Source: Escherichia coli (GTDB lineage Bacteria > Pseudomonadota > Gammaproteobacteria > Enterobacterales > Enterobacteriaceae). Taken from it: DNA of 64,000 bases. The notes beneath the pieces are model-generated. The model worked only from the letters and a program-made list of their open reading frames with translations. It was not told the DNA's origin and made no database searches. The stretch lies in the NCBI RefSeq assembly GCF_003018255.1, contig NZ_CP027440.1. One strand, given 5' to 3'. A program made the position numbers and the translations under genes. Positions 20,158 to 44,926 of the stretch are shown in pieces; positions within the stretch are counted from its first letter, which is position 1, and every line of letters starts with the position of its first letter.

Positions 20158-20222
20158 GTTTTTTGTTGCCTGAAATTTATGCTCTTTAAAATCATGATGT
20201 TAGAAGCACTGTTTTTTAACGA

Positions 20223-20244
20223 TGGCGACAAAATGGCGGCAGCG
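20223..20244. repeat. Prophage attachment-site core, left copy (tggcgacaaaatggcggcagcg)
   Basis: 21/22 identical to 54609..54630; lies immediately after the ogr stop, where P2-type attP sits. Confidence 0.7.
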
Positions 20245-20463
20245 TCAAAGAGAGAGCGCCACCTGTCCTGATTTCATTGGATGCGGCTGAACCGGATTTG
20301 ACTCTTTTGGCGTTGCAATCGAACGAACAAAAGTTTCATGAGTAACAAAAGTATGGCTGCAGTTAATGTTCTGGCACTGGTTGTAACGCTCTTTGGTCAA
20401 TGAAGATACCTGAAAACTGCTGCGAGTATGGGCGGCACTTCCACACAGTGGGCAAATCATCAT
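20245..20463 (-). CDS. ogr: Late-gene activator Ogr (zinc finger; CxxC...CxxxxC)
   Basis: ORF 20245..20496; start moved to MMICPLCGSAAH... for ~72 aa. Confidence 0.85.
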   Translation of the reverse strand: MMICPLCGSAAHTRSSFQVSSLTKERYNQCQNINCSHTFVTHETFVRSIATPKESNPVQPHPMKSGQVALSL

Positions 20464-20553
20464 TTTTCGAGTTCTCCCCATTTTTGCTAAATTCACAATA
20501 ATGATACCGCATTATTCCATTTTGAAAACTTAAAAGTTCTCCATTGCGAAGAA

Positions 20554-21654
20554 TCATTCCATTTCGAAATCATCAATCTTCACTTCAAGCTCCAGACTGG
20601 TCGTAAAACCGTTATCCGGGCTGACAGTATGCGTCAGGGTGGTAATAGTCCATTCCGCATCATCTATCGGCTGTTTAAAGCCACTGACTTTCACTGGCAT
20701 TTCCGTGTAGAGATCTGCCCGCCCTTCCGCCAGTTGTAGCGAGAATGACGCAACGCCGCGTTGCAGGCGTTCCCACTGCATTTTCGCCGCTCGTTCGGCG
20801 TTGCTCCGGTTGGCATAAGTGCGATTAAGTACCAGCACGTTTTCATCCGTACCCACCAGGTAATCGCCCTGCTTCGCTTCCGGCTCTTTCTTCTGCTTCT
20901 TAGTTCTGCGCTTACGCTTCACCGTGGTGCTTTCTTTCTTCGCGGGTTCGCGGGTATGCAACCAGCTGGCAATTACGCCCGTGTAAGCTCCGCGATCTGC
21001 CAGGGTAAAGCGGTGACTGTCGCCGTCCTTACGTGTGATAGTGATAACCGGTAGTGGTTTACCACTGGCGCTTTTACCCTGCCCCTGCCTGATGAATAAC
21101 AGATTGCCATTTTTCACCGACGCAATAGCACCGTACTGGCGCGCCAGCCGCATCAGAAAACTGCCGTCACTCTCATTGGTCTGGTCTATATGTTCCACGG
21201 GTTTATCTGACAGGTCTTTACCCAATGCCATCTTCAGTTTGTGCCGCGCAGCTATTTCCTTCACCACTTCCCCAACGGTGGTCTTGTGCCACGACTTTTC
21301 ACGGCGGGTATTCAGTGTTTCACGAAAATCAGCACTTCGCGCCCGGATAGTCAGGCGGTCCGGTGCGCCAGTGTGTTCAATCTCGTCCACTGTGAATGCC
21401 CCTTTCGGGAAAAGCGGCTGCCCCTTCCAGCCTAGCGCCAGCGTAATGACCGCACCACGGCGCGGCAGCGCTATTTTTCCATCGGCGTCATCCAGGTCCA
21501 GATCAAGCTGGTCCGCTTCAAAGCCCCGGTTATCCGTCAGCGTCAGACTCATCAGGCGGTTATCCAGCACAGTGGTGATATCCCTGCCCTCAATACTGAT
21601 ACTGAATGCCGGAGTTTTGTTGCCTTTGTTAAGCAGTTCAGAGCTGAAATTCAC
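20554..21654 (-). CDS. D: Tail protein D (P2 gpD-like)
   Basis: Size and position next to ogr and U. Confidence 0.85.
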   Translation of the reverse strand: MNFSSELLNKGNKTPAFSISIEGRDITTVLDNRLMSLTLTDNRGFEADQLDLDLDDADGKIALPRRGAVITLALGWKGQPLFPKGAFTVDEIEHTGAPDRLTIRARSADFRETLNTRREKSWHKTTVGEVVKEIAARHKLKMALGKDLSDKPVEHIDQTNESDGSFLMRLARQYGAIASVKNGNLLFIRQGQGKSASGKPLPVITITRKDGDSHRFTLADRGAYTGVIASWLHTREPAKKESTTVKRKRRTKKQKKEPEAKQGDYLVGTDENVLVLNRTYANRSNAERAAKMQWERLQRGVASFSLQLAEGRADLYTEMPVKVSGFKQPIDDAEWTITTLTHTVSPDNGFTTSLELEVKIDDFEME

Positions 21655-22136
21655 GACAGAAGCCCTCCCACCGTTTTACTGATATCGCTTAAGGCAGATG
21701 TTGCCGTTCCCTGCAGATTATTCAGCTGCGCACTGAGATCACCGAACATATCGGACAGGGATTCATCCACCCGTTTGAGCGACAGGGTGAACTCAATCCG
21801 GCGCGGCATACCGTTGCGGAAAAACTCCGTTTTAGTCTGATTCAGTCCCTCAATCACATACATGCCGTAAATCGTGCCGCTGCCTTCAATCAGAGGCCAT
21901 GCTTTCCCCTGTTCTGCCATCTGCTCAAGTGCCAGCAACGACAGCCTGCCGCCTGTTATCTCCGGCATAAGAACACCGGAAAGCGTCAGCATGTCGTTGT
22001 CTGGTCCCAGAAACTGCGTGGACGGACGACGATTTACCCGGCTGTTAACCGCATGTCGCCAGCTGCGTTGATACTGCAGTTCCTGATACGGCACGGTGCG
22101 CAGCATAAACACGTACAATCCCAGCACCATCATCAT
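21651..22136 (-). CDS. U: Tail protein U (P2 gpU-like)
   Basis: Size and P2 gene order. Confidence 0.8.
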   Translation of the reverse strand: MMMVLGLYVFMLRTVPYQELQYQRSWRHAVNSRVNRRPSTQFLGPDNDMLTLSGVLMPEITGGRLSLLALEQMAEQGKAWPLIEGSGTIYGMYVIEGLNQTKTEFFRNGMPRRIEFTLSLKRVDESLSDMFGDLSAQLNNLQGTATSALSDISKTVGGLLS

Positions 22137-25100
22137 GCGTCGTATCCCCCCTGATCGCTGTAGTTACTCCTGGCTTTTGCCTTCAGCCTGCGTTCACGTT
22201 CATCAAGCTGGCGTGCCACCTCCCGCGCAATATCCTGCGCACTTTGTCCTGGCTGCGTCTGAATGATGATCTGCGTCGGTGCCTCAATCCGTTGAACGAG
22301 CGGCACAGTGGCTGCGCGACTCACAATTGCTTCTCCACCTTTCGCGGGAAGTGCCAAAGGGTGCAACGGTGGAAGCTCTGCTGGCGCGGCAGCAACGCCC
22401 ATCATTCCGGCAACAACGGCAGCCAGTGCAGCTGTATTTCTCCGGCTGGTCACATTTGCCGGGCCGTTAACAATTTCCGGCCCGTTTTCACCGACGATGC
22501 CAAACTGCCCGCGCGGGATATACCCGCCGCTGTCATACATCCCCGCAAAGCCATATCCCCATGATGGAAAACCACCCGATGGCATCATCACTTTACCGTC
22601 TGCATTCACCGTCGCAGGTTGCTGACGCGTCACGCTTTCCGGCAGTTTTGCCTTTGCGGCCTCTTTACTGACAATGCCGAGCTTCTCCAGCAACCAGGAA
22701 ACGCCGGATTTCAGGGAGTCCAGCGGATGCATGACCATATTCAGCCCTTCCACCAGTGCCTCCCCGAATCGCCGCCCCATTGCCGCTGCGCTCTGCAGTT
22801 CGGCAGAGGTCGACTTAACGGGCGTCAGCAGATCAGTAAACCAGCCCCACAGCGCCTGCACTTTGTCGCCAATCCACTGGAACACGGGCTTAAGCGGTTC
22901 GAACGCTGCACTGATGGGACCTGCCGCCGCTTTGAATCCTTCCACCACGCCACCGAGAAATGCGGTGATGGGTTGCCAGTATTTCCAGACAACCAGCGCC
23001 ACGCCCGCCAGTGCAGTAACCACAAGACCTATCGGACTGAGCAGAGCACCTAACAGACCAGATATGGCATACAGGGCAACGCGCAGCATCGCCAGTGGAC
23101 CAGATGCCAGTACTCGCAGCACCGTGCCTGCGGCGGCCAGTCCACCGCGCAGTACCGACAGAGGATTCATAAACATCACAGCAACAGCACGTAAACCGGA
23201 TAATCCAGACCGCAAAAGTGCAACCGGCGCACCTGCTACAGTTTTCAGGACATTTCCCGTCAGTGATGCCGTGCGGCGCAAAGACGACAACGGCGCAGTA
23301 AGTAAACCTGCGGCGTTGCCCGATGAAGCAAGCCCGCGTCGCAGCAGTGCCAGTGGTGCGCCAGCCAGCCAGGACAACGCGCTGCTGGTTCGAGTTACTG
23401 CTGCCGTAACGAAAGATAACGTTTTGATACCCAGCACAGAGAATCCCAGACGGATCACTGCCAGCGGCCCCAGCACTGCAGCCAGCGCCACCGCTAAGGT
23501 GCCGAGGCCGACGGTAACCGCAGCCACAACAGCCGATGCTTTCATCAGTGTGCCTGTCAGTTCCGGGTTAGCTTCCACCCAGCGACGCAACGCCCCCGTG
23601 ACGCTTTTCACCGTGTACAGAATATCCATCAGCGGCTGGCGCAGCGTTTCGCCCAGGCTGCTGAAGGTGTTCTGCGCTCCGGTTTTGACCAGCAACCACT
23701 GCGCAGAAAGTGAATCCTTGTTAATGTCGGATTCTTTCTGCATGGAGCCGAGCGCATCATTGCCCGCTGTCAGTTTTAACTGACGCTGCAGTTCCGGCAG
23801 GTTGTTTGCCAGTTTCGCCGCGTCATCGCCAAACTCTTTACCAAACAACATAGTCATGGCAGACAGGCGCTTGTCCTGCGGCAGCGCGTTTACCTTCTCC
23901 AGCACGCGCTGGATGGTTCCCATCGCATCCTTCGTCATCTGCTTTTCAATCACTTCAGGATTGAGTTTCAGCAAATTCATCCCTTCAAAGAAACTTTTGC
24001 TTTGCATGGTGGCAATGGACAATTCACGCACCATCGCGTTTGCTGCACTGGCTGCAACCTCTGGCGCAGCGCCCAGTGTCAGGAAGGTGGAACCCAGCGC
24101 CGCCGCTTTACGATAATCCAGACGGTCAGCCACACCGCCCAGACGTTGCATCACATCAATGATGTCTGCCCCTTTCGACATGGCGTTATCATCCAGATAG
24201 TTCAGCGCATCACCGAGCTGTTCAATATTGCGGGTGGGGATTTTGTAGAGCTGGGCGATTTTCCCCAGACTTTCTGACAGTTCATCCGCTGGCAGCTCAA
24301 AGGCTGTTGCCGCCTTTGCTGCCGTACTGGCGAAGGCCAGCAGGTCACGTTTCTGATCTTCCCAACTGTCGTCAGGGTTTGCGACGTTCATGCGCGCACC
24401 ACCTTCAACCAGTGCAGCGAAATCCACCGCACCGTTTTCCATCGGCAACTGTTCGCTGGCAGCCTTGATGGCATCCTGCATTTCATAAAAACGTGCAGTG
24501 CGGTTGCCATTATCGTCACGCAGACCATTGACCTGCTTTGCCACACCTTTCATGGCATCTTCCATGCTGGTATAGCTTTTTACTGCCGCCATCACTGGTG
24601 CGCCCATTGCCAGCCCTGCAGCCGTGGTGGTGGCTCCGGCACCTGCAATACGATCACGCACCTCCAGCGAACGGGCATAACTGGCACGCGCTGCATTCAT
24701 CCTGCGCTGAGCTTCCCCCAGTCGCTTCAGCCGCGCCTCCTGTTTCGAAAGTTCCTGGTTATAACGTGATGTTTCACGGGCTAAACGGGCAGTTGCTCCC
24801 GCATCGTCTTTCGCAGAAATTCCCGCCCGGTACAGTTCAGCACGCACAAGCGCCGTCTGCTGCTGCAGCTTTTTCTGGCGTTCTTCCAGGCGCTGAACAG
24901 CCAGCCGTTGACGGCCCAGAGCAACAACCTGACGTTGCGAAGGCGGCCCCATCGCTCCCAGTTCCTGACTGAGCAAATTTGCACGCTGGCGGGCATAGTT
25001 CAGCCTGTCGCCTAATTTCTGATTTTCTGCCTGCAGCTTTCGGAAGCTGTCCAGACTGCTCCCGGCCTGATCAAGCTGCTTTATTGCATCGCGGGATTTT

Positions 25101-25210
25101 TTGACAGCAGCAGCCAGTTCTCTTGAACTGGCCTGCGCAGATCGAAATGGGCGGGTGAGCTTGTCAACCGCATTAAGAATGACCTGCAGACGCAGGTTGT
25201 TATCACTCAT
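22133..25210 (-). CDS. T: Tail tape-measure protein (P2 gpT-like, 1025 aa)
   Basis: Very long Ala/Leu-rich coiled-coil protein between E/E' and U. Confidence 0.88.
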   Translation of the reverse strand: MSDNNLRLQVILNAVDKLTRPFRSAQASSRELAAAVKKSRDAIKQLDQAGSSLDSFRKLQAENQKLGDRLNYARQRANLLSQELGAMGPPSQRQVVALGRQRLAVQRLEERQKKLQQQTALVRAELYRAGISAKDDAGATARLARETSRYNQELSKQEARLKRLGEAQRRMNAARASYARSLEVRDRIAGAGATTTAAGLAMGAPVMAAVKSYTSMEDAMKGVAKQVNGLRDDNGNRTARFYEMQDAIKAASEQLPMENGAVDFAALVEGGARMNVANPDDSWEDQKRDLLAFASTAAKAATAFELPADELSESLGKIAQLYKIPTRNIEQLGDALNYLDDNAMSKGADIIDVMQRLGGVADRLDYRKAAALGSTFLTLGAAPEVAASAANAMVRELSIATMQSKSFFEGMNLLKLNPEVIEKQMTKDAMGTIQRVLEKVNALPQDKRLSAMTMLFGKEFGDDAAKLANNLPELQRQLKLTAGNDALGSMQKESDINKDSLSAQWLLVKTGAQNTFSSLGETLRQPLMDILYTVKSVTGALRRWVEANPELTGTLMKASAVVAAVTVGLGTLAVALAAVLGPLAVIRLGFSVLGIKTLSFVTAAVTRTSSALSWLAGAPLALLRRGLASSGNAAGLLTAPLSSLRRTASLTGNVLKTVAGAPVALLRSGLSGLRAVAVMFMNPLSVLRGGLAAAGTVLRVLASGPLAMLRVALYAISGLLGALLSPIGLVVTALAGVALVVWKYWQPITAFLGGVVEGFKAAAGPISAAFEPLKPVFQWIGDKVQALWGWFTDLLTPVKSTSAELQSAAAMGRRFGEALVEGLNMVMHPLDSLKSGVSWLLEKLGIVSKEAAKAKLPESVTRQQPATVNADGKVMMPSGGFPSWGYGFAGMYDSGGYIPRGQFGIVGENGPEIVNGPANVTSRRNTAALAAVVAGMMGVAAAPAELPPLHPLALPAKGGEAIVSRAATVPLVQRIEAPTQIIIQTQPGQSAQDIAREVARQLDERERRLKAKARSNYSDQGGYDA

Positions 25211-25639
25211 CGTTGGCCCCGCTTCTCTGAATCGCTTTATACCGCCATTCCAGCACTTCGGTCAGCGGCATAACGTCAGTAACGGATGGCGGCCAGTGAA
25301 AAATGGTGGCGATATCTGCCACCAGATCGTCAACCGTCAGGCTGTCGGTAAACCGGCAAGCACCGACTTCTTCAACAAAAAAGTGACAACCTCAACCGAC
25401 ATGGCAGTGAGATCTGCCGGGTCCATCTCTGCAATTTCCTGTGCAGTCAGTGCCGGACTGGAGATGCGGGGGATCACGATCATCATCGCGTTTACATCCA
25501 TATCCATAATGGCCTGCAGGCGTGTACCGCGCAGCGCACCGGACTGCGGTTTACGCAGCACAATTTCGGTGATTTCTGTTTTACCGCGCTTGATGGGGGT
25601 ATCCAGTTGAATGGTCTTTTCAGTCTGCTTATCGCTCAT
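25207..25639 (-). CDS. E: Tail assembly chaperones E and E+E' (E = 25337..25639; E' by -1 frameshift at TTTTTTG)
   Basis: Minus-strand slippery heptamer at ~25375..25381; the -1 frame then stays open to a TGA overlapping the T start codon (ATGA). Confidence 0.7.
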
Positions 25640-25693
25640 TTTGCTGTCCTGTCAATTGGGTTCTGGCGCGGTATCCCGCGCCGTTCAGATATA

Positions 25694-26209
25694 TCAGAGG
25701 CCGAGGGCGTTGCGGTGCGCTTCCATCAGGTCCACACCGTCCACAATTTCCACCATGTTGATAAGGTCCACTTCATAGAGCACCTCACCATTGATGGTCA
25801 GCTTCGCGTAGCTGTTGGTACTGGTCACTTTGGTGGTGTTGCTTTCGCCCGTCTTCCACTCGCCGGAATCCACTTCTTTGTGACGTCCACGCACGACAAG
25901 CTCCACAGCCTGCACTTCCCCGGTATCGTCACGCTGAATAGAGCCGGTAAAGCGCAGCTGGATGCCATCCACCGTGGCTTTACCCATCTGTTTAAACAGC
26001 AGCAATTCAGTACCACCAATGGAAAATTCTGTGTCCAGCGCACTGTCATCAAGCCCCAGATCCACATCCACCGCACCCGGCATTCCGCCGCCGCGATACT
26101 TCTCATATTTGCGGGTGAATTTCGGCAGCGTCAGCGACTCAACGATCCCCTGCCAGTTGTTCCCGTCGTTAAACAGGTTCAGGTGTTTTAATTTGCGTGG
26201 TAAAGCCAT
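25694..26209 (-). CDS. FII: Tail tube protein (P2 gpFII-like, 171 aa)
   Basis: Size and order. Confidence 0.88.
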   Translation of the reverse strand: MALPRKLKHLNLFNDGNNWQGIVESLTLPKFTRKYEKYRGGGMPGAVDVDLGLDDSALDTEFSIGGTELLLFKQMGKATVDGIQLRFTGSIQRDDTGEVQAVELVVRGRHKEVDSGEWKTGESNTTKVTSTNSYAKLTINGEVLYEVDLINMVEIVDGVDLMEAHRNALGL

Positions 26210-26218
26210 GTTGTCCCC

Positions 26219-27391
26219 TTACGCGCTGACCTGGCTGGCGAAATTCACCAGGTACTGATCGGTGATGCGCTGACGCAGCATCAGGTTTTCAAGTGGCGGC
26301 ACTGGCGTGTAGTCGTAGTCGATGGTGAGTTTTCCGGCTTTCAGCGTGTCTTTGTCGTTCACCGACTCATCCAGCCAGCAATCACCACCAATGAGATAGC
26401 CCTGACTGACCAGGCTGCGCATTTTGGCGCGGATACCTTCGATAATGTCGCGGGCCAGCGACGGGTTAAGCGGTTTATCCACCGCCCACATGTGTGCTTC
26501 TGCCATCGTGTCCATCAGCACCTGCGCCGTGCGGGTGTAGTTTTCGAAGGCAAAGAGCGGGTCATCACTCAGGCAGCGGGAACCCCAGAAGCGGAAACCG
26601 TCTTTACGCACAAGCGTGGTGACGTCGTTCTGGTTCAGCAGACCTGCATCGGTTGCCGGGTCCTGCAGATCCCAGAACACATCTGCAGAAATTCCGGTGA
26701 CACCGTTCACGCCCACGTTGGACAGGCTTTTGTGCCATCCGGTCTGCTCGTCAATTTTGGCGCGCAGACCAAGCGCACGGGCGGTGGCATATGCCGTTGC
26801 TTCGGCATTCAGCACCGTGTCCCAGCCAGTAAAGTCAGGCCAGATCAGCATCCCTTCGCGCTGGCTGAAGTTTTCGCGGTAAGTGATCGCCTCCTGCACT
26901 GTCTTGCAGCCATACGCTGACAGGTAAGCAAATCCACGCAGGCTTTGCGCCACGCTCAGCAACTCAGTAGCTACCGCCTTGGTGTCGTGGCCTGGCACGC
27001 CGAGAATGCGCGGTTTAACGCCGAGCTGTGACTGGGCAGATAACAGGGCTTTCATACCTGTTTTTTTACCTTCAGCAGTCACTGCGCCGATGATATTGGT
27101 CGTGGTTTCGTCTTCCGTTTCACCCTGCGGCACACGCACAACAATGGTCACGGGTTTTGCCTGGTCAGCGATGGCATCCAGCGAACGGGCCAGAGTACCG
27201 GACTCACCCGCTTTACCGCTGGCAGTCAGCACATCAGTGATCAGCACGGGTTTATTAAGAGGAAACATTTTTGCATCGGCATCATCGCCCGTGCAGACCA
27301 TACCCACGATGGCGGTGCTCACCGTGGTAATAGATCGGGTGCCTTCGTTGACTTCAACAACGCGCACCCCGTGGTGGTAATCCTGAGCCAT
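26219..27391 (-). CDS. FI: Contractile tail sheath protein (P2 gpFI-like, 390 aa)
   Basis: Size and order. Confidence 0.9.
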
Positions 27392-27533
27392 AGTGGCGAA
27401 CCTCCTGATTGGATTAGGCTTCGCCCTATGTTGAAGTGATTGTGCCTGACAAACAGCTAAGCGCAGTTGTGTCGTTATTCACACAAAATAACGGTATTTG
27501 TCTGCTTGCAGGGATAATCAACATAATGCTGAT

Positions 27534-28106
27534 TCAGGGGGATTCATTGATCTTATTTGCCGGAAATTTTCTATAAATGGTAGAAACGCCTACATCAAAA
27601 ATCAGTGCAATACGCTGTCTTGATTCTCCGGCCTCGAGTAAACGCCCAATCTGTGCCCACTGTTCGGTGGTCAACTTAGGACGGCGTCCACCTACTCTGC
27701 CTTTGGCACGAGCTGCAGCCAGCCCTGCCCTGGTACGTTCAACTATCAGTTCGCGTTCCATTTCAGCCAGGGCACCCATGACATGAAAAAAGAAACGGCC
27801 CATTGGGGTACTGGTATCAATACTGTCAGTCAGGCTTCTGAAATTCACACCACGCTGGCGCAACTCTTCTATCAGCGTAACAAGATGCCGCATACTGCGC
27901 CCCAACCTGTCCAGCTTCCAGACAACCAGCGTGTCTCCTGCCGATAGTGTCCTGAGTAGTTTTTTCAGCCCCGGTCTGTCGGACTTAGTGCCACTGATTT
28001 TGTCCTCAAAAATCCGCTCACATCCCGCGCAGTTCAGTGCATTACGTTGCAAATCGGTGTTCTGGTCATTTGTTGACACGCGTACATAGCCAATAAGCAT
28101 GATCAT
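27534..28106 (-). CDS. Serine-recombinase DNA invertase (Hin/Gin/Pin family)
   Basis: N-terminal GYVRVSTNDQ catalytic-serine motif and C-terminal HTH; abuts the invertible tail-fibre segment. Confidence 0.9.
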   Translation of the reverse strand: MIMLIGYVRVSTNDQNTDLQRNALNCAGCERIFEDKISGTKSDRPGLKKLLRTLSAGDTLVVWKLDRLGRSMRHLVTLIEELRQRGVNFRSLTDSIDTSTPMGRFFFHVMGALAEMERELIVERTRAGLAAARAKGRVGGRRPKLTTEQWAQIGRLLEAGESRQRIALIFDVGVSTIYRKFPANKINESP

Positions 28107-28127
28107 CCCCCTGAATAAAAACCGGAG

Positions 28128-28664
28128 ATGATGCCAGTTAGCTGTTACCTCTGCATTTTCTTAAACGTTGGTTTGGGAGAAGGTTCAGCATTACCTGTTG
28201 GTGCGCCTGTTCCGTGGCCTTCAGAGACACCTCCAACAGGCTGGCTGAAATGCAACGGGGCGGCTTTTTCTGCTGAAGAATACCCGGAACTGGCAAAGGC
28301 TTACCCGACAAATAAATTGCCTGATTTACGAGGTGAATTTATTCGTGGCTGGGATGATGAACGTGGTGTGGATAGTGGGCGAACTCTGCTTTCAGCGCAA
28401 GGAGATGCTATTCGAAACATTACTGGCGGTTTTGGTCAGTTGCGCGTAAACAGCGAAATTAATGCAATTGTCGATGTTCAAAGTGTGAGTGGGGCTTTTT
28501 ACGGAGGTACCTCAGTCCGGAATAACATCAATGTGTCTATGACATACGCTAATGACCGAAAAATCCGACAAGATGTTCACTTCTCGGCGGCAAATGTTGT
28601 TCCAACAGCAAATGAAAATCGTCCACGTAACATCGCCTTTAATTATATTGTGAGGGCCGCATGA
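28128..28664 (+). CDS. Alternative tail-fibre C-terminal module (silent in this orientation; fused to H after inversion)
   Basis: No independent start is needed; its frame passes through the crossover site coding FLNVGLGEGS, matching LTYLGLGEAA in H. Confidence 0.65.
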   Translation: MMPVSCYLCIFLNVGLGEGSALPVGAPVPWPSETPPTGWLKCNGAAFSAEEYPELAKAYPTNKLPDLRGEFIRGWDDERGVDSGRTLLSAQGDAIRNITGGFGQLRVNSEINAIVDVQSVSGAFYGGTSVRNNINVSMTYANDRKIRQDVHFSAANVVPTANENRPRNIAFNYIVRAA

Positions 28665-29265
28665 TGAATAAAGCTGTATTAAATAGCAAACTCATTGCCA
28701 TAAAAGCGGGAGACATTATCATTTATAATTATGATGGTGAAACGCGGGAATATATTTCTACATCAACTGAATATCTCGCTGTCGGCGTCGGTATCCGGCA
28801 TGTTCTTGTTTGGATGCACCAGGTACACATAAAGCTGGTTATGCAATTTGTCGTTCTGTAGATTTAAACTCATGGGAATATGTGCCAGACCATCGCGGTG
28901 AAGTTGTCTATAACACCGAAACGGGAGAATCAAAAGAAATCACAGCTCCGGGTGATTACCCTGAAAATACAACCACTATCGCCCCATTAACGCCATACGA
29001 TAAATGGGATGGCGAGAAATGGGTGACGGATACCGAGGCACAGCATAGCGCCGCAGTAGATGCAGCGGAAGCACAGCGCCAGTCGCTGATTGATACTGCA
29101 ATGGCTTCCATCAGTCTGATTCAACTGAAATTGCATGCCGGACGTAAACTGACGCAGGCAGAAACAACCCGGCTTAACGCTGTGCTGGATTACATTGACA
29201 CGGTGACGGCAACAGATACCAGCACCGCGCCGGATGTCATCTGGCCTGAACTACCGGAGGCGTAG
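28661..29265 (+). pseudogene. Tail-fibre assembly (chaperone) gene paired with the alternative fibre module; split over two frames (28661..28861 and 28810..29265)
   Basis: C-terminal part ends ...VIWPELPEA like the G paralogue ...IEWPTPPVVQAR; the N-terminal 66 aa is in a different frame. Confidence 0.5.
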
Positions 29266-29680
29266 GCCATTCAATATCTGGAGCACTGGAGGTATCAACC
29301 AGTTCCAGTGCGTCCAGATAATCCAGCCATAAATTATATTGTTCCAGTTCGTCACCTTTCAGACGACCAATAGCAGCTTTGCCAGGCCACTGATGGGTGT
29401 TGATGTAGGTATTGGCTTCTGAAACCAAAGATATTTTTTTCATTTCAGCCATCAACACCTCATCCTCTTTTGAAGGCGGTGGGGAATTAATCCATATTGG
29501 CCGTCCTGAACTGTCAGCGCCAATTTCTTTCCCTTCTGGATGCAGCCCAAGAAATTGCTCATATCTTTCTCTGGTAATTTCAATAACATCATCAGGAAGC
29601 GTTCCCGCATCCTCATATTCTGGAAACAATTCTTGCAGATAAAAACTTTTACTTCCGGGTGAAAAGAATACTGAGTTCAT
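29237..29680 (-). CDS. G: Tail-fibre assembly protein (P2 gpG-like) for the currently expressed fibre
   Basis: 147 aa, directly after H. Confidence 0.85.
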   Translation of the reverse strand: MNSVFFSPGSKSFYLQELFPEYEDAGTLPDDVIEITRERYEQFLGLHPEGKEIGADSSGRPIWINSPPPSKEDEVLMAEMKKISLVSEANTYINTHQWPGKAAIGRLKGDELEQYNLWLDYLDALELVDTSSAPDIEWPTPPVVQAR

Positions 29681-29682
29681 TC

Positions 29683-31185
29683 TTACCGTCCAATGATTAA
29701 GGCTGAGACGCTGGTATCTGAAGGAAAGGCTGCATTCAGTGGTTTGTCGACTTTGAATACAATCGTATTATTCCCCCTGACAGCGGCAAAAGAACAAACC
29801 GCAGTCGCGTATGAACCTGTAATATTACTGGATACACCACCATAAGCTGTTGTTGATACCAGAGGGATAACGCCCAGCACCTTATTAGGAAATACAAAGG
29901 GCAATGTGGCTGTGGCAATATAAGACTTATTAGAACCTGTGATGGAATAAGCATTATCAGTCATTCCATTCATCGCCACTGGGCCGCTTATACTTACAGT
30001 AACCATCTGAATGATTAGCCCGTCAGGTTGACGAATCACAAAATTTCCATTGCCACCAGTAACCGTCCAGAAAGACATATCAGGGATTTGGTTTTCCCCG
30101 TTGCCCACATTCCGTTTTGCCGCTTCTCCCAAACCAAGGTATGTGAGAAGACCAGCTACATCCTTTCCACTCAAATTGGTAAGCGTATTGTCCAGCGGTT
30201 GTTTACCTGCCAGCGCATTAAGCATTGTCGTGGCAAAGTTCGGATCATTCCCCAGTGCCGCCGCCAGTTCGTTCAGTGTATCCAGTGCAGCAGGTGCAGA
30301 ACCCACCATTCCTGCAATCGCCGATTTCACAAAAGCCGTAGTGGCAATCTGTGTATTGTTGACCGACTGCGCCGCCGTGGGGGCTGTTGGCGTTCCGGTG
30401 AGTGCCGGACTCGACAACGGTGCTTTTAGTGCCAGCGCATTGTTAATGGTGGTACTGAAATTCGGATCATTGTTAATGGCTGCGGCTATTTCTTTCAGCG
30501 TGTCCAGCGTGGCTGGCGCACCATTAATAAGGGCCGTCAGTGCCGCCTGTACAAACGCAGTGGTCGCAACCTGCGTGGTATTATTCCCCGCCGCTGGCGT
30601 TGGCGCTTTGGGGGTTCCGGTAAATGTCGGGCTGGCTTTTGGCGCGTACTGTGAATGCGGGTCCGGTGCGGCAAGATGTTTTGCCATCTGATCATCCGCG
30701 TACACCTTCAGCTCCAGTGCCTTGTCATCCACATACTTGCGGGTTGCCAGCACTACAGCAGGGTCGATTTTCAGGGTGATATTGTCCGTGCTGCTGGTAA
30801 TCAGCACCATGCGCACGGTCTGAGTGCGCCCGCTACCTTCAGCCAGTTGCGGCTTATAGCTTTCCGGGCAGTTGCCCACGGCAATCAATGCCCCGGACTC
30901 ATCAAACAAGCCCACTTCACGTATCCACCAACCGCCCTCGTTTTCAGGGATCACCTGTTCGGCAATAATCTGGCTGCTGTTCTGCGGGTCGATATAAAGC
31001 ATATTCAGCGCAGCCCGGCGTTTCTCATTTACCAGTGCCGTCTGCTTTGCGTCCGGCGTTGGCAATACTCCACCGCCATCGCCCACCGCCATATGGGTAA
31101 TTTTTAGCGGCACACCGAGCGCGGCGGCGCTGGCAAGTTTCGCCGCGCCAATATCCGTCAGCAGGGTATAAAATTTTGTGCTCAT
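29683..31185 (-). CDS. H: Tail fibre protein (P2 gpH-like, 500 aa); N-terminal ~349 aa constant, C-terminal part inside the invertible segment
   Basis: Conserved N-terminus MSTKFYTLLTDIGAAKLA...; internal ~73-aa tandem repeat; crossover site within the ORF. Confidence 0.9.
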   Translation of the reverse strand: MSTKFYTLLTDIGAAKLASAAALGVPLKITHMAVGDGGGVLPTPDAKQTALVNEKRRAALNMLYIDPQNSSQIIAEQVIPENEGGWWIREVGLFDESGALIAVGNCPESYKPQLAEGSGRTQTVRMVLITSSTDNITLKIDPAVVLATRKYVDDKALELKVYADDQMAKHLAAPDPHSQYAPKASPTFTGTPKAPTPAAGNNTTQVATTAFVQAALTALINGAPATLDTLKEIAAAINNDPNFSTTINNALALKAPLSSPALTGTPTAPTAAQSVNNTQIATTAFVKSAIAGMVGSAPAALDTLNELAAALGNDPNFATTMLNALAGKQPLDNTLTNLSGKDVAGLLTYLGLGEAAKRNVGNGENQIPDMSFWTVTGGNGNFVIRQPDGLIIQMVTVSISGPVAMNGMTDNAYSITGSNKSYIATATLPFVFPNKVLGVIPLVSTTAYGGVSSNITGSYATAVCSFAAVRGNNTIVFKVDKPLNAAFPSDTSVSALIIGR

Positions 31186-31787
31186 GGATTCACTCTCATT
31201 GTGTCAATAACATGGACCGCCCCGCCTTCATGCGCGGTGCCACCGGAAATAATCGTTTCGTTGATATACGGATAGATCGTGATTTCTTCGCCAAGATAGC
31301 TGGCGGCTCCCACCCAATGCGGGCCGCTGGTCTGCAGATTGATGGACATGCCGATCATGTGGCGGCTACATGGTTTGGCATCGCTTATCAGTCGCTCAAG
31401 TTCCAGATAGGTATCTTCAGTGATGCCCTGGTCCTGCACGCCGATATCCAGGCGAAACGTGCCCGGTGTTTCTCCGGTCTGCCACCACTCAATAATGCGG
31501 ATCAGGAATCCGAACGGTTCCACCGCCCGCCGCACGGCACTGGTGGTTCCTTTATGCTGATGAATATAAAAAGCATCCTTCACTACCTGGCGTTTGACGC
31601 TTTCTGTCCAGCCCTCGTCCCAGCGATCCACAGAGAACGCCCAGGCGAGATAAGGCAGGAAGCTGACCGGACAGGTAGCCGGATTCCACAAGTCACGCAG
31701 CGGCACCTGCAAATCAGAAATCCCGCTACAGGTTTGCGCCAGTCGGCGCTCCAGTGAAGTTGAACCCGGTGGCAGCAGACTATTCAT
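31182..31787 (-). CDS. I: Baseplate/tail protein I
   Basis: P2 order and size. Confidence 0.8.
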   Translation of the reverse strand: MNSLLPPGSTSLERRLAQTCSGISDLQVPLRDLWNPATCPVSFLPYLAWAFSVDRWDEGWTESVKRQVVKDAFYIHQHKGTTSAVRRAVEPFGFLIRIIEWWQTGETPGTFRLDIGVQDQGITEDTYLELERLISDAKPCSRHMIGMSINLQTSGPHWVGAASYLGEEITIYPYINETIISGGTAHEGGAVHVIDTMRVNP

Positions 31788-32688
31788 CCGTTCCTCCGTT
31801 GGTTACGCTCCACTGCGTACATGATGCCGCCTGTGTTTTGTTCAGGACCACATCCGCCAGCGGAGAAGCCAGTTCCACACGTTGAACACCCTCAACATGC
31901 AGAGCAGCAAAGATGGCGCTACGGCGAATATCCCGACCAAGCCTCGTCTGGCTGGCAATGTACTTCTGCAGACTGGCTTTTGCCGCTGCCATTACCGGCT
32001 CTGCTTCCGGTCCCGGATAGAGAAAAATGGTGGCTTCCACGCGATACGGGATGATTTCTGCGCTGCGAACCGTAAGACGGTCAGCCACCGGGCGGACGTT
32101 CTCACTGTTCAGAGCTTTTTCCACCACGTCCAGCAGGTCTTTTTCTGCAGTTCCATCGCCTTCGCGGCTAAGGACAGTCAGCACCACCTCTGCAGGTGCC
32201 GGGCTGGTTGCACTGGCATCCGCCACCCGACCGTCGGCGCTTCGGGCATGAAATTCATAAGCTGCAGTTGGCCCCGCAACAGAAAGCCCTTCAAAGGCTG
32301 CAGGCACACGCAGGCGCAACGCTTCATCGCTTTCCATCACAGCTGCAACGGGCGGCACAGCATCATTATCAGCAGGCGTCACCGTCAGGCGTGTCACGTT
32401 GTAGTTGGCAGCGAGCTGGTCAAGATCGCCGCCCATCGCGTAAGCCACCATCACCGCCTGCGCGGCTTCGTTAATGCGCTGGCGCAGAAGCAACTCACGG
32501 TAAGCGTTCTCCTGCAACAATTTAGTGGCGGGTTCAGATTCCAGTTCCAGCGTGCGGATCACTGCTTCCTGCTCATCTTTCGGATGAAGCGCCACAAATT
32601 CTGCCTTGCGTTCGGCAAGCAGCGTCTCAAAGTCCGGCACATCCACAATCTGCGGTGCAGGCAACTGCGAAAGGTCAATCACTGCCAT
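31780..32688 (-). CDS. J: Baseplate protein J
   Basis: ORF 31780..32727; start set to MAVIDLSQL... Confidence 0.85.
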   Translation of the reverse strand: MAVIDLSQLPAPQIVDVPDFETLLAERKAEFVALHPKDEQEAVIRTLELESEPATKLLQENAYRELLLRQRINEAAQAVMVAYAMGGDLDQLAANYNVTRLTVTPADNDAVPPVAAVMESDEALRLRVPAAFEGLSVAGPTAAYEFHARSADGRVADASATSPAPAEVVLTVLSREGDGTAEKDLLDVVEKALNSENVRPVADRLTVRSAEIIPYRVEATIFLYPGPEAEPVMAAAKASLQKYIASQTRLGRDIRRSAIFAALHVEGVQRVELASPLADVVLNKTQAASCTQWSVTNGGTDE

Positions 32689-33034
32689 TCTCTGCTCCTG
32701 TTGATACGGAAAGGGACACAGGCACACCGTTATTCCGCCGCCCGGTCAGCTCCACCACCATTGAACCGTCAAAATTGCTGTTGATGGTGATGGAATCCAG
32801 CGTCAACCGTGGCTCCCAGCGACTCAGCGCCACATACACTGCAGACATGACCTGCAGGCGTAATGCCGGATTTTGTGGCTGATCTATCAGTGCCGACAGC
32901 AGGGAACCATATTCCCGGCGGGCAATACGGCTACCCTGCGGTGTCAGCAGAATGTCCCGCACCGACTGGCGCAGATGATCAATATCAGTAATGACTTTGC
33001 CGCTGGTATTGTTCATCCCGCTATAAAGCGTCAT
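32675..33034 (-). CDS. W: Baseplate protein W (GPW/gp25 family)
   Basis: Size and order. Confidence 0.85.
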   Translation of the reverse strand: MTLYSGMNNTSGKVITDIDHLRQSVRDILLTPQGSRIARREYGSLLSALIDQPQNPALRLQVMSAVYVALSRWEPRLTLDSITINSNFDGSMVVELTGRRNNGVPVSLSVSTGAENGSD

Positions 33035-33609
33035 ACCGGGCCTCCGGTTGTATCGCCGCCTTTCAGGACGCCAGTATGCTGATGCGCATCAACCACGATC
33101 CCGTTAGAACTCATCGCTCCGCCGCCCTGGGTAACGCCACCATTGATCACCACTTCGCTGTTAATGCGCGTGCGGTCAGCCTCCAGTACAAACTCACTGG
33201 TTTTCATGGTGATGTTGTCAGCAGCCTCAATGACCATTGATTTGATGCCCCTGACATACCAGCGCCCGGTGGCGGGTTCGTATTCAAACCAGCCACCGTC
33301 AGGATGTTCTGTCACGCAGGCGTCCGCCGACGTCGACGGTGGTGCGAACTGATTCGAATAGACAGCGGGCAGCGCAAAGGCGGTTTCCAGATTGCCGCCC
33401 AGACTCAGCAGCACCACCTGCTCACCTTCCGATGGTCGCCACCATGTACGGGCATTCCCGGCACGCAGCGTCAGCCAGCTGATCCAGTTGGTTTCAAGCT
33501 CGCCCGTTTTCACCCGGCAAAGCCAGTTTTCCCTGTCCACTTCGGTGACTACCCCTGTGCGGATCAGGTTGGTGATAAGGCGCATGATTTCGGTTAATTG
33601 TGCGTTCAT
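33031..33609 (-). CDS. V: Baseplate spike/assembly protein V
   Basis: Size and order. Confidence 0.85.
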   Translation of the reverse strand: MNAQLTEIMRLITNLIRTGVVTEVDRENWLCRVKTGELETNWISWLTLRAGNARTWWRPSEGEQVVLLSLGGNLETAFALPAVYSNQFAPPSTSADACVTEHPDGGWFEYEPATGRWYVRGIKSMVIEAADNITMKTSEFVLEADRTRINSEVVINGGVTQGGGAMSSNGIVVDAHQHTGVLKGGDTTGGPV

Positions 33610-33677
33610 AGGGAAAGGTTGCCATCAGGGGAAGAAAGGCGGCAGTGCTGCAACTTGTATCAGTGCTGATACAAAGA

Positions 33678-34124
33678 TCACCCCGCCAGCCATTGCAGAA
33701 TCATGTCGCGGGTCATTGCCTCAACATCATCATTTACACCCAGCAGGCGGCGCTCTGCGTAACGGACCTCCGGTCCTTTGCGACTGACGCGATCACGCAG
33801 GCCGTAATGGTGAACACGGGCAATACGCTGCACCTTGCCTTCAAACTGTACGCTGGCAGAGTCGGCGCTGGCGGCAGTTTTCAGGTATTTTGTGGTGCGC
33901 AACTTTGCAAACATCTGACGTTTGATGCGGCCTTTTTTGCTGCGTGCTGTTACCCTGCGCGGTTCATAACTGCTGCCATCTGGATTGCGCTGCATCCTGA
34001 TATTCTGCTGCTGTGTCCGGCGCAGTTCCTGCGCCAGCTGGCGCATCATGCGGCTTCTCGTGGCTGGTTCCAGATTCGCCAGCAAGGCACTCAGCCAGTC
34101 GTCCACCTTCTGCAGTTCAGCCAC
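33678..34124 (-). CDS. S: Tail completion protein S
   Basis: Size and order. Confidence 0.8.
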   Translation of the reverse strand: MAELQKVDDWLSALLANLEPATRSRMMRQLAQELRRTQQQNIRMQRNPDGSSYEPRRVTARSKKGRIKRQMFAKLRTTKYLKTAASADSASVQFEGKVQRIARVHHYGLRDRVSRKGPEVRYAERRLLGVNDDVEAMTRDMILQWLAG

Positions 34125-34569
34125 GTTTCACCGTCCACATTTCTTCAGGTTCATCGGGTTCTGCTACAGCTTCAACGCTCGACACACTGCCGTCAGTACT
34201 GACCAGCACACGTTCCGTCAATTGCAGGTTAAGGCTGATATCACAGACATCGTTGCGCAAAATATCCACCTCAAAGGTGAATAGCTTTTCCCGTAACGCC
34301 GGGTTATTGATGGCATCGGGCTGGTTATCCCGAAGCCACAGTAAAACCGGGGCCATCAGCAGATTCTGGTCGCCGCTGAAATCCTCAATCACCACGTTCA
34401 GGGTGTAGCGGTACTCCCATGACATGGAGCTGGCCCCCGTGGCAACCAGCGAACCGTTATCCACAAACAGATGCAGTTTGTCCGGGTTATTGCGGACATA
34501 AGGCACCGCTTTATTGAGGGCGTGGCGCAGGGATTGTGGTTTGTTCACTGTTTCGCTCCTGACACGCAA
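34117..34569 (-). CDS. R: Tail completion protein R
   Basis: Size and order. Confidence 0.8.
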   Translation of the reverse strand: MRVRSETVNKPQSLRHALNKAVPYVRNNPDKLHLFVDNGSLVATGASSMSWEYRYTLNVVIEDFSGDQNLLMAPVLLWLRDNQPDAINNPALREKLFTFEVDILRNDVCDISLNLQLTERVLVSTDGSVSSVEAVAEPDEPEEMWTVKRG

Positions 34570-34801
34570 TAATCATGTCCACTTTGTCTGCACAGACCGC
34601 CCAGGCGGCCTCCGTTTCATCCAGCAACGCGTTCAGGCCACCGTTAGTGCGCGGCGCTGCCTGATCCAGCCGACACGGCGTCACTCGCGGACAACCACTG
34701 ACGGTAAGCTGCACCTCCGGTGAGTGTGGGGCGTTCCCGCAGCCGGATAATGTCAGCAGGCAAAGGAGTATCAGCCCAGCGGCGTAAATCCTCGTTCTCA
34801 C
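34511..34801 (-). CDS. lysC: Outer-membrane spanin lipoprotein (Rz1/LysC-like), embedded out of frame in lysB
   Basis: Lipobox LTLSGC after a signal peptide; Pro-rich; overlaps the 3' part of lysB as in P2. Confidence 0.55.
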   Translation of the reverse strand: MRTRIYAAGLILLCLLTLSGCGNAPHSPEVQLTVSGCPRVTPCRLDQAAPRTNGGLNALLDETEAAWAVCADKVDMIIACQERNSEQTTIPAPRPQ

Positions 34802-35072
34802 GTTTCAGTTCCTCAATCCGGTGTTGTCGTTGTCTCAGCAGTACACTGGTCTGTTCTGCTTCGGCATAGAGCCGCGCCTGCTCCCGATTATTGGTTTCAG
34901 TCAGAATGGACAGGCTGATAAGCTGGCTGTTGCTCTTTGCCAGTGCCTGGCTTTTGCTCCGAAGCTCGTCTGCCTGCGTGCTGATGGTCTGGCTGGCATC
35001 AGCCAGCCGCCACGTCTGCCAGCCCAGCGCCGCCAGTAATAACGCCAGCACAACCAGCAGCAACCGGTTCAT
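34644..35072 (-). CDS. lysB: Inner-membrane spanin (Rz/LysB-like)
   Basis: N-terminal TM plus coiled-coil; position in the lysis cassette. Confidence 0.75.
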   Translation of the reverse strand: MNRLLLVVLALLLAALGWQTWRLADASQTISTQADELRSKSQALAKSNSQLISLSILTETNNREQARLYAEAEQTSVLLRQRQHRIEELKRENEDLRRWADTPLPADIIRLRERPTLTGGAAYRQWLSASDAVSAGSGSAAH

Positions 35073-35446
35073 GCTGCTACCTGTTGCGCAATCTGATTAC
35101 GGATCATCCAGAAGGCAATAACGGTCAGCAGATAAAAGACCAGGGTAATAGCCCACCCCGTCCAGGCGAGGCTGACGACAATCAGCAATCGCATCACCCA
35201 GCTGATAAATACGTTTTCTTTTCGGGTAATGGTCTTTAGCAAAGATGCCCTCAACTCCTGCCAGAGCGGGCCGTTCTTAATTAACGCAGCCAGTGCTACC
35301 GGAATTACCGCCCATGTCAGCAAACAGGCTACCCAGACACCGGACGCTGCCAGTACCGGAAAAATCCCCTGCGGATACACCATTGCTGCGATCAACAGCG
35401 CCATCCATAACATCAGAAACAGCCCGCTGATTACTTTCTTTTTCAT
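35069..35446 (-). CDS. lysA: Lysis-timing membrane protein LysA-like (125 aa)
   Basis: ORF 35069..35518; start set to MKKKVISGLFLML..., placing the ATG right after the endolysin stop. Confidence 0.65.
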   Translation of the reverse strand: MKKKVISGLFLMLWMALLIAAMVYPQGIFPVLAASGVWVACLLTWAVIPVALAALIKNGPLWQELRASLLKTITRKENVFISWVMRLLIVVSLAWTGWAITLVFYLLTVIAFWMIRNQIAQQVAA

Positions 35447-35447
35447 T

Positions 35448-35960
35448 TCAGTTTGCTCCCTGTAAGCACCAGGCCATCTCCCGCGCACGGCGGTTATCCA
35501 GCCCCTGATTAAAAACACCTTTCACATAAACCCAGCGCGGCAACTGTCGGCACGCATCCGCCCAGCGCCGCTGATTGAGTAATTTCACCAGTGTGGAACT
35601 GCAGGCATTGCCCGTTCCCACGTTGAAGGCAAACGACACCGCAGCGTCATACACCTTCTGCGGCGGCTGTTGCTTCACACACCTTTCCAGCGCCCGCTCC
35701 ACACGCAGCACGTTGGAGATCAGCCCTTCTGCTGCCTGTCGCTCCGTAATGGTTTTGCCGGGAATGACGCCCGACGTATTACCAATGCCGTCGGTCCAGA
35801 CACCCGCGCTGCACTGATACGGCTGCAGACGACAACCTTCGTAATCGGCAATCAGTTTCAGCCCTTCCACTGAGGTGTGAAGCTGCTGAAAACCCGGCAG
35901 CGTGGCAGCAATAGCCAGCACGGCCCCGACAAGGCAGCGTTTAACGATTGATGGATTCAT
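35448..35960 (-). CDS. K: Endolysin: lysozyme with N-terminal signal-anchor-release-like segment
   Basis: Hydrophobic N-terminus followed by a lysozyme-like core; position after the holin. Confidence 0.8.
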   Translation of the reverse strand: MNPSIVKRCLVGAVLAIAATLPGFQQLHTSVEGLKLIADYEGCRLQPYQCSAGVWTDGIGNTSGVIPGKTITERQAAEGLISNVLRVERALERCVKQQPPQKVYDAAVSFAFNVGTGNACSSTLVKLLNQRRWADACRQLPRWVYVKGVFNQGLDNRRAREMAWCLQGAN

Positions 35961-36156
35961 AGTCCTCCCGCGAGATCTGCCCGTCGCGCAGAAGCTGGTA
36001 GGCTTTGTGTTTGTAGTACCAGTTGATAGCCAGCATCAGCACACCAATCATCAGGCCGCCCAGCGTTGAGGCATCCTTGATGGACAAATCGCCCAGCCAG
36101 GCCAGCACGACGGCGATGCAATACGTGATAAAGGCGCTGATTCGCTCAAGCGTCAT
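35941..36156 (-). CDS. Y: Holin (71 aa)
   Basis: Two hydrophobic segments and a charged C-terminus, preceding the endolysin. Confidence 0.75.
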   Translation of the reverse strand: MTLERISAFITYCIAVVLAWLGDLSIKDASTLGGLMIGVLMLAINWYYKHKAYQLLRDGQISREDYESINR

Positions 36157-36159
36157 AAT

Positions 36160-36363
36160 TCAGTCCCATAGCTGGACGGTCTGCACGGTGGTGGTGGTCG
36201 GAATGTCCGGCAGCTCCACCTGCAGCCCGTGAGGTAAAAAGGGGCCGTATTCGGCAAGCCCCGGATTTGCCTTCAGTACCTGCTCCGTGACACCCTGCGT
36301 GCGCCCGTAATGACGCCAGCAAAGCGCGTCCACCGTGTCATACTGATGCGCACGCACTTTCAT
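36160..36363 (-). CDS. X: Tail protein X (67 aa)
   Basis: Size and position between L and the lysis genes. Confidence 0.8.
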   Translation of the reverse strand: MKVRAHQYDTVDALCWRHYGRTQGVTEQVLKANPGLAEYGPFLPHGLQVELPDIPTTTTVQTVQLWD

Positions 36364-36890
36364 CAGATAAGCTCCACTGTGCAGTGCGGCGCATCCTGCA
36401 CCCGGCTGATGGCCCAGCGGGCGTCACGCCACAAATCACCGCTTGCTTCCGCCAGTTCCTCGCCCCGCTTCGCACCGGATGCCGTGGCGTCATAGTCCTG
36501 GTAACGTTCGTTGAGCATGGCGCGTGCCCAGCAGTAAACCGCGTTGAAATAGTGCTGAATGCGCTCGCTTTTGCCGTCCAGCTGTTCCGCCGGAACCTCA
36601 GCCAGCGACACATATCCCAGCATCTGCTGGCGTCTGCGAAACTCATACAGCTCTGCGTTGACCTCCGAAATTGCCGACAGGGCAACCTGCTTTAAACGCG
36701 GCTGCGTCACCGTGCCGTCAGTGCGCATCACGCTGCGAAACTCCGACAGGTCCACATCAGGCCAGAACGGCGTATTTCTGATGATTTCCGCCTGTTCCGG
36801 TGCCTGTTCTGGTGCAACAAACTTCATGCTGCTTTCTCCTGAAATAGAGGGCGGTGGACGGGATTTTGATGTGGCTATGCCTTTCGCCAC
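36363..36890 (-). CDS. L: Head completion/stabilisation protein L
   Basis: Size and order. Confidence 0.8.
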   Translation of the reverse strand: MAKGIATSKSRPPPSISGESSMKFVAPEQAPEQAEIIRNTPFWPDVDLSEFRSVMRTDGTVTQPRLKQVALSAISEVNAELYEFRRRQQMLGYVSLAEVPAEQLDGKSERIQHYFNAVYCWARAMLNERYQDYDATASGAKRGEELAEASGDLWRDARWAISRVQDAPHCTVELI

Positions 36891-36922
36891 CCCGTGCCGC
36901 CCGTGCGCGGGGGCACGTTCTG

Positions 36923-37573
36923 TCAGCGGCTGTCATTGCGCAGTCTGCGCTCCAGCTGCTGTTTGTCTTTTTTCACGCCACAGCGGGGAGCGAGCTGTAA
37001 CGCATGGTTGAGATGGTTAAGGGCAGAAGCCGGATTGCTTTCACTCAGGACAGCGCCAATCGCTTTATGCAGACGCGCCCGTGACTGGTCCGGCATATCC
37101 AGACCGTCTGTTAGTTCCAGTGTCTGCAGCAACAGATCGGCATCAAAGCCGGTGGCGGCAAGCATTGCGCTCTGCGCCGCGTCTGCCATTTCCTCTGCCA
37201 GCACGGTCTGCACGTTGCGGTTACCCAGCGGCATCACCCAGCCATGACGCAGGGCATGACGCCCGATCTCCAGCGCCCCGGCATAATCTCCGGCATCAAT
37301 GCGCCACAGCATCACGTACATCAGCACGTCATCCTGTTGAGCGCCTCCGGCAGCCAGAACGCCCTCCGCCCAGGCGGTATATTTCGGCAGCAGCTCCACC
37401 TTGATTTCCGCTTTTTTGACCGTGGACTGAACGCCCTTGAGACGGCGGCGGTCTTCCGCCAGTTGCAGCAGCATCAGGTCATAGCCCGACGCGTGGCAAA
37501 CACTGCCACCCTCGCGAGCGGCCTGTTCAGCCTGAACGCGCAGGCGATGCTGCCGTGCGGGACTCAGGCTCAT
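36923..37573 (-). CDS. M: Terminase small (endonuclease) subunit M
   Basis: Size and order. Confidence 0.8.
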   Translation of the reverse strand: MSLSPARQHRLRVQAEQAAREGGSVCHASGYDLMLLQLAEDRRRLKGVQSTVKKAEIKVELLPKYTAWAEGVLAAGGAQQDDVLMYVMLWRIDAGDYAGALEIGRHALRHGWVMPLGNRNVQTVLAEEMADAAQSAMLAATGFDADLLLQTLELTDGLDMPDQSRARLHKAIGAVLSESNPASALNHLNHALQLAPRCGVKKDKQQLERRLRNDSR

Positions 37574-37576
37574 GAA

Positions 37577-38635: not shown

Positions 38636-38651
38636 CGGGTTTTGTGCTCCA

Positions 38652-39485: not shown

Positions 39486-39627
39486 GAGCCGTGCTCCGTT
39501 AGAAAAAACTTACTGGAGCCTTATGGTTGCGGTGATGGGGGCAGTGAAACAATGCGCGGCATTTGTACCGACAACCACACAAACCGCAGGCGGGGAAAGC
39601 CTTCATTCAAGGCTGTAGGTTTGTACC

Positions 39628-42419: not shown

Positions 42420-42460
42420 CGAAAAATCAGCCTTGGCGTTCATAACGTTAGGGCTGTTCA

Positions 42461-44428
<1,968 letters not shown>

Positions 44429-44458
44429 GTATTTTGCCTATTTTAGGTGATAGCGCGC

Positions 44459-44481
44459 GCTCGTATCCCCGCCACGCCTGC
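44459..44481. other. Probable cos site (cohesive-end sequence)
   Basis: The minus strand reads GGCGTGGCGGGGATACGAG, resembling the P2/186 19-nt cohesive end (GGCG(A/T)GGCGGGGAAAGCA...) as I recall it. Confidence 0.5.
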
Positions 44482-44520
44482 CCGCTTTATGTAGTGGTTT
44501 TCATGCACCTGCATGATCTA

Positions 44521-44547
44521 CGCAAAAGCCCGCCAGTTCTGGCGGGC
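44521..44547 (-). terminator. Rho-independent terminator ending the tum/DinI-like operon
   Basis: 9-bp GC stem gcccgccag/ctggcgggc with a 2-nt loop, followed on the minus strand by TTTTG. Confidence 0.75.
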
Positions 44548-44916: not shown

Positions 44917-44926
44917 AAAAGTCACC

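Follow-up and report, generated by a model that had tools for sequence, protein, structure and literature searches.

In the Escherichia coli contig NZ_CP027440.1 (assembly GCF_003018255.1) the chaperone gene that accompanies a silent tail-fibre cassette of a prophage appears as two overlapping open reading frames (ORFs) in different frames. The locus raises the question whether this gene is truly broken, which would leave the fibre switch of the phage one-sided, whether the two-frame layout has a function of its own, or whether one base is missing only from the deposited sequence. The 64,000-nucleotide stretch of DNA carrying the locus, called the window throughout, was compared with sister assemblies, with complete E. 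coli genomes and with known invertible fibre segments.

Anatomy of the invertible fibre segment

The chromosomal flanks in the window comprise the fli operon, rcsA, dgcQ, dcm and vsr on the left and hchA and hprRS on the right, and the window is 98-99% identical to complete E. coli genomes. The prophage between the flanks is of the P2/186-like type and apparently complete; it contains ogr, D, U, T, E/E', the tube and sheath genes, I, J, W, V, S, R and the lysis genes, as well as L, M, N, O, P, Q, A, the repressor and the integrase. The switch is located between the sheath gene and the fibre genes (the gpH/gpG equivalents). Its parts, and those of the chaperone gene discussed here as tfa', are listed below.

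~20158..54722, P2/186-like prophage, apparently complete
27534..28106, minus strand, serine DNA invertase of the Gin/Pin type, 190-aa ORF (annotated with 188 aa and a start at 28100 in relatives)
28128..28664, plus strand, silent fibre C-terminal (receptor-binding) module, Pfam Collar E = 3.4e-16, real start at the crossover site, ~28170
28156..28181, plus strand, left 26-bp crossover site, TTTTCTTAAACG-TT-GGTTTGGGAGAA, core TT at 28168-28169, inverted repeat I1
28661..28861, plus strand, 5' fragment of tfa', ATG start, 66 aa (45 native and 21 out-of-frame codons)
28794..28796, plus strand, the lesion, CC instead of the CCC or TCC of all relatives, a one-base deletion
28810..29265, plus strand, 3' fragment of tfa', TTG start, 151 aa corresponding to native residues 50-200
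29237..29680, minus strand, chaperone gene tfa of the expressed cassette, 147 aa, Caudo_TAP E = 5.2e-28, same sequence in sisters
29683..31185, minus strand, expressed tail fibre, P2 gpH-like, 500 aa, Pfam Phage_tail_fib E = 4.5e-65
30124..30149, minus strand, right 26-bp crossover site inside the fibre gene, TTCTCACATACC-TT-GGTTTGGGAGAA, core at 30136-30137

The invertase matches Pfam Resolvase (E = 2.3e-53) and HTH_7, it aligns over its full length (residues 1-184, E = 1.1e-92) with phage Mu Gin (PDB 3UJ3), and its catalytic serine is found in the context YVRVSTNDQ. The two crossover sites are inverted relative to each other, are separated by ~1.97 kb, and have an identical TT core and the half-site GGTTTGGGAGAA in common. 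The 15-mer TTGGTTTGGGAGAAG occurs in the window at the left and right sites only, against 0.18 occurrences expected by chance, and since there are only two such sites, a two-state switch is indicated. The Gin-like invertase recombines the two sites, one of which is within the fibre gene, and the flip of ~1.97 kb swaps the C-terminal receptor-binding module of the fibre together with its cognate chaperone for the alternative pair. The 500-aa fibre made in the present orientation consists of the constant N-terminal part and the current variable C-terminal module, and exactly this protein is on record in 5 contigs. The tfa gene of the expressed cassette is convergent with tfa' and shares 29 nt with its 3' end; the expressed fibre/tfa pair is intact and the same as in the sisters. 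An Rfam search of the whole window returned DsrA, RseX and one tRNA only, with nothing in the switch. Scanning 27300-31300 for promoters gave 5 sites where 5.1 were expected, with no sign of a separate promoter for the silent cassette.

Several other properties of the prophage were recorded. Compared with the prophage-free loci L023-L025, it seems to be inserted ~85 nt into a 357-aa porin gene of the yedS/hchA region (window 20072-20157 and 54723 onwards), an insertion that would detach the first ~28 codons from the ORF at 54752..55699. A reverse transcriptase of the retron Ec67 family (646 aa, 42461..44401, minus strand; NCBIfam NF038237, 703.9 bits with a cut-off of 450) has the portal gene on one side and a DinI-like gene on the other. 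The msr/msd is probably found upstream of the reverse transcriptase, at ~44402-44700; Rfam gave no retron RNA match at the gathering score. Further prophage genes code for a D12-class adenine methylase (282 aa in sister loci, ORF 48714..49634 in the window) and a PAPS-reductase-like protein (47707..48717), and the arrangement resembles that of the known 'retronphage'.

The split chaperone gene and the missing base

The original prediction had described a tail-fibre chaperone coded by two ORFs in different frames, and the ORF list contains both pieces exactly so (28661 mod 3 = 2, 28810 mod 3 = 1). The chaperone identity is supported by the Caudo_TAP domain and by homologues annotated as tfaE, and the proposed pairing with the silent fibre module also holds, since this Collar-containing module (28128..28664) is within the invertible segment, beside the Gin-like invertase. 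The module is directly 5' of tfa' and translationally coupled with it: its stop codon (28662-28664) overlaps the ATGATG start of tfa', and a GAGGG motif is found 6-9 nt upstream of this start. Judged from its domain content and homologues, the region 28661..29265 is one gene, coding for the tfaE-type tail-fibre assembly protein (chaperone) that belongs to the silent cassette of a two-state host-range switch.

The complete Caudo_TAP domain (PF02413) is contained in the 151-aa piece (residues 29-150, Pfam E = 1.3e-32), which scores 113.1 bits against 112 bits for the restored protein, the gathering cut-off being 22.1 bits. The 66-aa product has no Pfam match. Since the 151-aa piece carries the whole domain and the public collection lists the restored protein in 74 blocks, the two ORFs are the halves of one gene and not a chance pair.

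In the alignment of tfa' with three E. coli homologues a single gap was found, at 28794-28796, where the window reads ATCCGG and the homologues ATCCCGG or ATTCCGG (window, GGTATCCGGCATG; homologues, GGTATCCCGGCATG or GGTATTCCGGCATG). Every full-length megablast match to the region has 702 bases, against 701 in the query. The gene is split into two frames because one C of the CCC run is missing: when one C is added after 28795, an open frame of 201 codons is obtained, and with the second ATG as start its 200-aa product is the same as that called in loci L007 and L009. An indel restoring the frame could be placed only in 28771-28858, since the second frame has its nearest stop on the upstream side at 28768-28770 and the first frame terminates at 28859-28861; the observed lesion falls inside this interval. 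A single indel near 28800..28860 had been predicted to restore a protein of ~200 aa; one base does so, but its site is 4-6 nt to the left of that range.

Homologues of tfa' with 94-96% nucleotide identity are annotated as tfaE in many E. coli genomes, and homologues of the region are present in 2416 of 5426 complete E. coli genomes, with as many as 7 of them in a single genome. In NCBIfam no model matches either Tfa. When the restored Tfa' was searched against the PDB sequences no significant match was obtained (best E-value 0.42), thus the lesion is not placeable on the Mu Tfa structure by sequence.

Sister prophages and the distribution of the deletion

The same prophage occupies the same site in public assemblies of the same lineage. 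For the comparison with this lineage, loci L022, L009, L011/L013 and L026 were joined, which covers ~2013-64000 of the window (~62 kb). All the differences between the window and the sisters are the orientation of the segment, a SNP at 52027, the missing C and a 335-bp insertion in fliP.

Locus L009 (GCA_029307295.1) has 100.000% identity with the window in 12133-28182 and 30123-35209, and in 28165-30137 it is reversed. The exchange point is mapped by this locus, in which the flanks align to 28182 and from 30123 and the interior is inverted. L009 expresses a 514-aa fibre, made up of the constant part and the alternative module and ending ...LTYLGLGEGSALPVG...IVRAA, followed by an intact 200-aa Tfa. 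Among identical prophages, L009, L014, L015, L017 and L020 have the inverted orientation, and L007, L016, L018 and L019 that of the window. Since both orientations occur among identical prophages, the inversion is active in the lineage, and the switch is normally two-sided. The longest contig with the intact Tfa is shorter than 2 kb in 30 of the 74 blocks, and the 1,932-bp contig L021 corresponds to the segment interior alone (window 28189-30119); such lone interior contigs are expected from short-read assembly when both orientations are present. Accordingly, the locus has the properties of a Gin/Cin/Pin-type switch that were tested, namely the invertase, the sites with the same core and both orientations in nature.

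The sole substitution over the ~62 kb, the SNP at 52027, is located where the repressor region of the prophage (ORF 51985..52641) begins; the window and SRR7947255 have T, GCA_029307295.1 and GCA_043013985.1 have G.

The fliP gene is interrupted in the window by the private 335-bp insertion (7759-8428, insertion region 8001-8428). It consists of 69 nt without an E. coli match, ~25 T and a duplicate of fliP bases 7759-8000, in the first 33 bases of which there are G-to-T changes at 8099 and 8105, beside the T run, and a change of GGG to GG at 8126. The sister locus L022 is 100% identical on both sides of the insertion and encodes an intact 245-aa FliP. The 69-nt filler was compared with the retron (msDNA) region of the prophage and with a set of sequencing adapters, and neither origin was retained, as the matches were at chance level only. 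The fliP insertion is suspected to be an assembly or long-read artefact.

The original prediction had proposed a comparison with the orthologous segments of related prophages, and this shows that the frame is intact in the sisters. The missing C is private to the window among otherwise identical prophage copies. In three loci with the orientation of the window, L007 (9.5 kb), L008 (7 kb) and L010 (18 kb), this C is the sole difference from it. CCC is present in all 13 fetched loci with this 23-mer context, and the frame of ~200 codons, interrupted in the window, is continuous in 13 of the 13 fetched loci of the same allele. In an exact-product look-up of the two tfa' fragments, with two start choices each, none was on record, so the deleted allele is not traceable to any other assembly or run. 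The species-representative genomes gave no match to a 40-mer bearing the deletion.

The only exact match to an 81-mer bearing the deletion, among the 144 matching E. coli records (5426 complete genomes searched), was in CREC-591 (NZ_CP024821.1, CP024821), an unrelated long-read assembly, and this was also the only deleted form among the fetched loci (L004). The identical 81-mer is there annotated as 'frameshifted' by PGAP. Unlike the window, which is otherwise clean, CREC-591 has the deletion in a different P2-like prophage with many more single-base deletions in the neighbouring genes. There (L004, 2373-4925), numerous single-base deletions disrupt not only this tfa but also the fibre gene and the opposite tfa, and these adjacent genes too carry the frameshifted annotation. 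The same C was lost independently in CREC-591, in what looks like an error-prone assembly, and since its deletion stands amid many others, a technical cause is able to remove the base at this site.

For the fibre region, the nearest relative among the complete genomes is the prophage of OU342919 (NZ_OU342919.1, L005), which is without head and lysis genes. As the closest relative of the window it was rejected, because it has 11 single-base indels relative to gene D of the window (OU342919 325-1430, window 20554..21654) and its gene D is annotated 'frameshifted'. These errors or decay are on the side of OU342919, as gene D of the window encodes 366 aa, the length called in the sisters.

Origin and consequences of the lesion

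The original prediction had named two alternatives, a real lesion with a one-sided switch or a sequencing indel, and these are the two that remain; the evidence leans to the second. We consider the missing C to be an uncorrected base-calling, consensus or assembly error, with a probability of about 65%, in which case the phage switch would be normal and two-sided. The deletion is private and is a homopolymer undercall, and no private substitution accompanies it over ~62 kb. With the fliP insertion, the window has two private lesions of the indel type, both with homopolymer undercalls. Real divergence is dominated by substitutions, and in spontaneous E. coli mutations substitutions exceed indels roughly ten to one; two private indel lesions with no private substitution therefore make a profile more typical of residual long-read or consensus errors. 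Such errors persist especially in multi-copy sequences, such as the tfa genes.

Some observations speak against an error. Outside the two lesions the window is base-perfect relative to the sisters, thus the assembly is not generally error-ridden. Homopolymer slippage is also the commonest natural route to one-base indels, and a silent prophage cassette is under little selection and is free to decay. The fliP insertion, whose filler lacks resemblance to the adapters compared, may not be technical.

Alternatively, the deletion would be a real and very recent mutation of this isolate, with the switch one-sided there only, a reading that we regard as possible but clearly the less probable. The lesion is present in the sequence and the rest of the window is clean, homopolymer slippage provides a natural mechanism, and the frameshift follows codon 45, inside the region labelled Caudo_TAP_N in the precomputed Pfam annotation of the collection. 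Since the cassette is silent and the prophage dormant, no purifying selection would act on the gene in the lysogen. However, the deletion is missing from every other copy of the same prophage, a private indel without a private substitution over 62 kb is unexpected, and a second private homopolymer undercall is found in the aberrant insertion of the same window.

Any explanation besides a sequence error or a real recent mutation is very improbable, and hardly any weight can be given to a functional two-frame layout, that is, a -1 frameshift at ATC-CGG, a phase-variation tract or a lone 151-aa minimal chaperone. Read from the sequence, a -1 shift after ATC would exactly recreate I-P-A-C, but the site (GGTATCCGGCAT) has no slippery heptamer of the X XXY YYZ type. 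The 151-aa piece has the full Caudo_TAP domain, and the functional 147-aa Tfa of the partner cassette consists of that domain alone and is of similar size. However, there is no purine-rich Shine-Dalgarno sequence in the 20 nt before the TTG at 28810, and the stop of the first frame (28859) is downstream of this TTG, which makes reinitiation there impossible, so that neither independent initiation nor reinitiation would be expected. Against phase variation, the run is of 3 nt (2 nt in the window) whereas phase-variable tracts are much longer, and the deleted form was seen in one record out of 144. The layout is not conserved either: 143 of the 144 E. coli records are without the exact deleted 81-mer, and all 13 fetched loci of the allele have one frame. 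Thus programmed frameshifting, phase variation and an independently translated 151-aa piece were rejected, the lack of conservation coming near to a refutation, and nothing supports the first two.

Whether it is a sequence error, as we favour, or a private mutation, the lesion is ordinary, and the switch in which it is found is of a well-known kind, as invertible fibre segments with paired chaperones are established in Mu G, P1 C, e14 P and the P2-like prophages of EPEC. The e14 P segment of E. coli K-12 (pinE, stfE/tfaE, stfP/tfaP) contains the same kind of tfaE gene, a Pin/Gin-type invertase, two convergent tfa genes and alternative C-terminal fibre modules in the invertible segment. However, e14 is a defective lambdoid remnant, whereas the prophage described here is apparently complete and P2/186-like, with a tfaE-type copy that has a one-base deletion. 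The Mu G (gin, S/U, S'/U') and P1 C (cin) segments are likewise two-state, with a crossover site inside the fibre gene, and as here a constant N-terminal part is joined to either C-terminal module, each with its own assembly gene. In contrast to Mu and P1, the backbone is here P2-like, and both the fibre modules and their chaperones belong to the e14/lambdoid tfaE type.

Sequencing has shown that the e14 segment and those of P2-like prophages flip (PMC4272514). In the P2-like prophages of EPEC E2348/69, hin-family invertases and inverted repeats are found with constant flipping in culture; one locus is a simple two-variant switch, as in the window, while the other has three inverted repeats and four variants, against only two sites in the window (PMC4272514). 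No frameshift was reported for the EPEC loci (PMC4272514), whereas tfa' of the window is frameshifted.

For annotation, the gene is best entered with the flag 'frameshifted; probable sequencing error; intact in sister genomes' rather than as a pair of hypothetical ORFs, and the assembly merits checking at 28794-28796 and at the fliP insertion (8001-8428).

As summarised from North et al. 2019 in PMC9608196, Tfa proteins are needed for the folding of the fibre, their variable N-terminal domain binds the fibre, and their conserved C-terminal helices drive trimerisation. With a real deletion, the 514-aa fibre would be made after inversion without its cognate chaperone, only a 66-aa fragment with a nonsense tail being produced. 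Virions of the alternative orientation would then have misfolded fibres or none, and part of each burst would be wasted. The live invertase would keep flipping the segment into the orientation with the dead chaperone, giving a natural one-sided host-range switch with a fibre-defective fraction in every burst, unless a tfaE-type chaperone of another resident prophage rescues it in trans; we hold this outcome to be rather doubtful. The frameshift of the silent copy, as either an assembly error or an isolate-specific pseudogene, carries little biological weight. Were it real, the lysogen would be a natural control for the need for a tfaE-type chaperone and for its substitution by paralogues.
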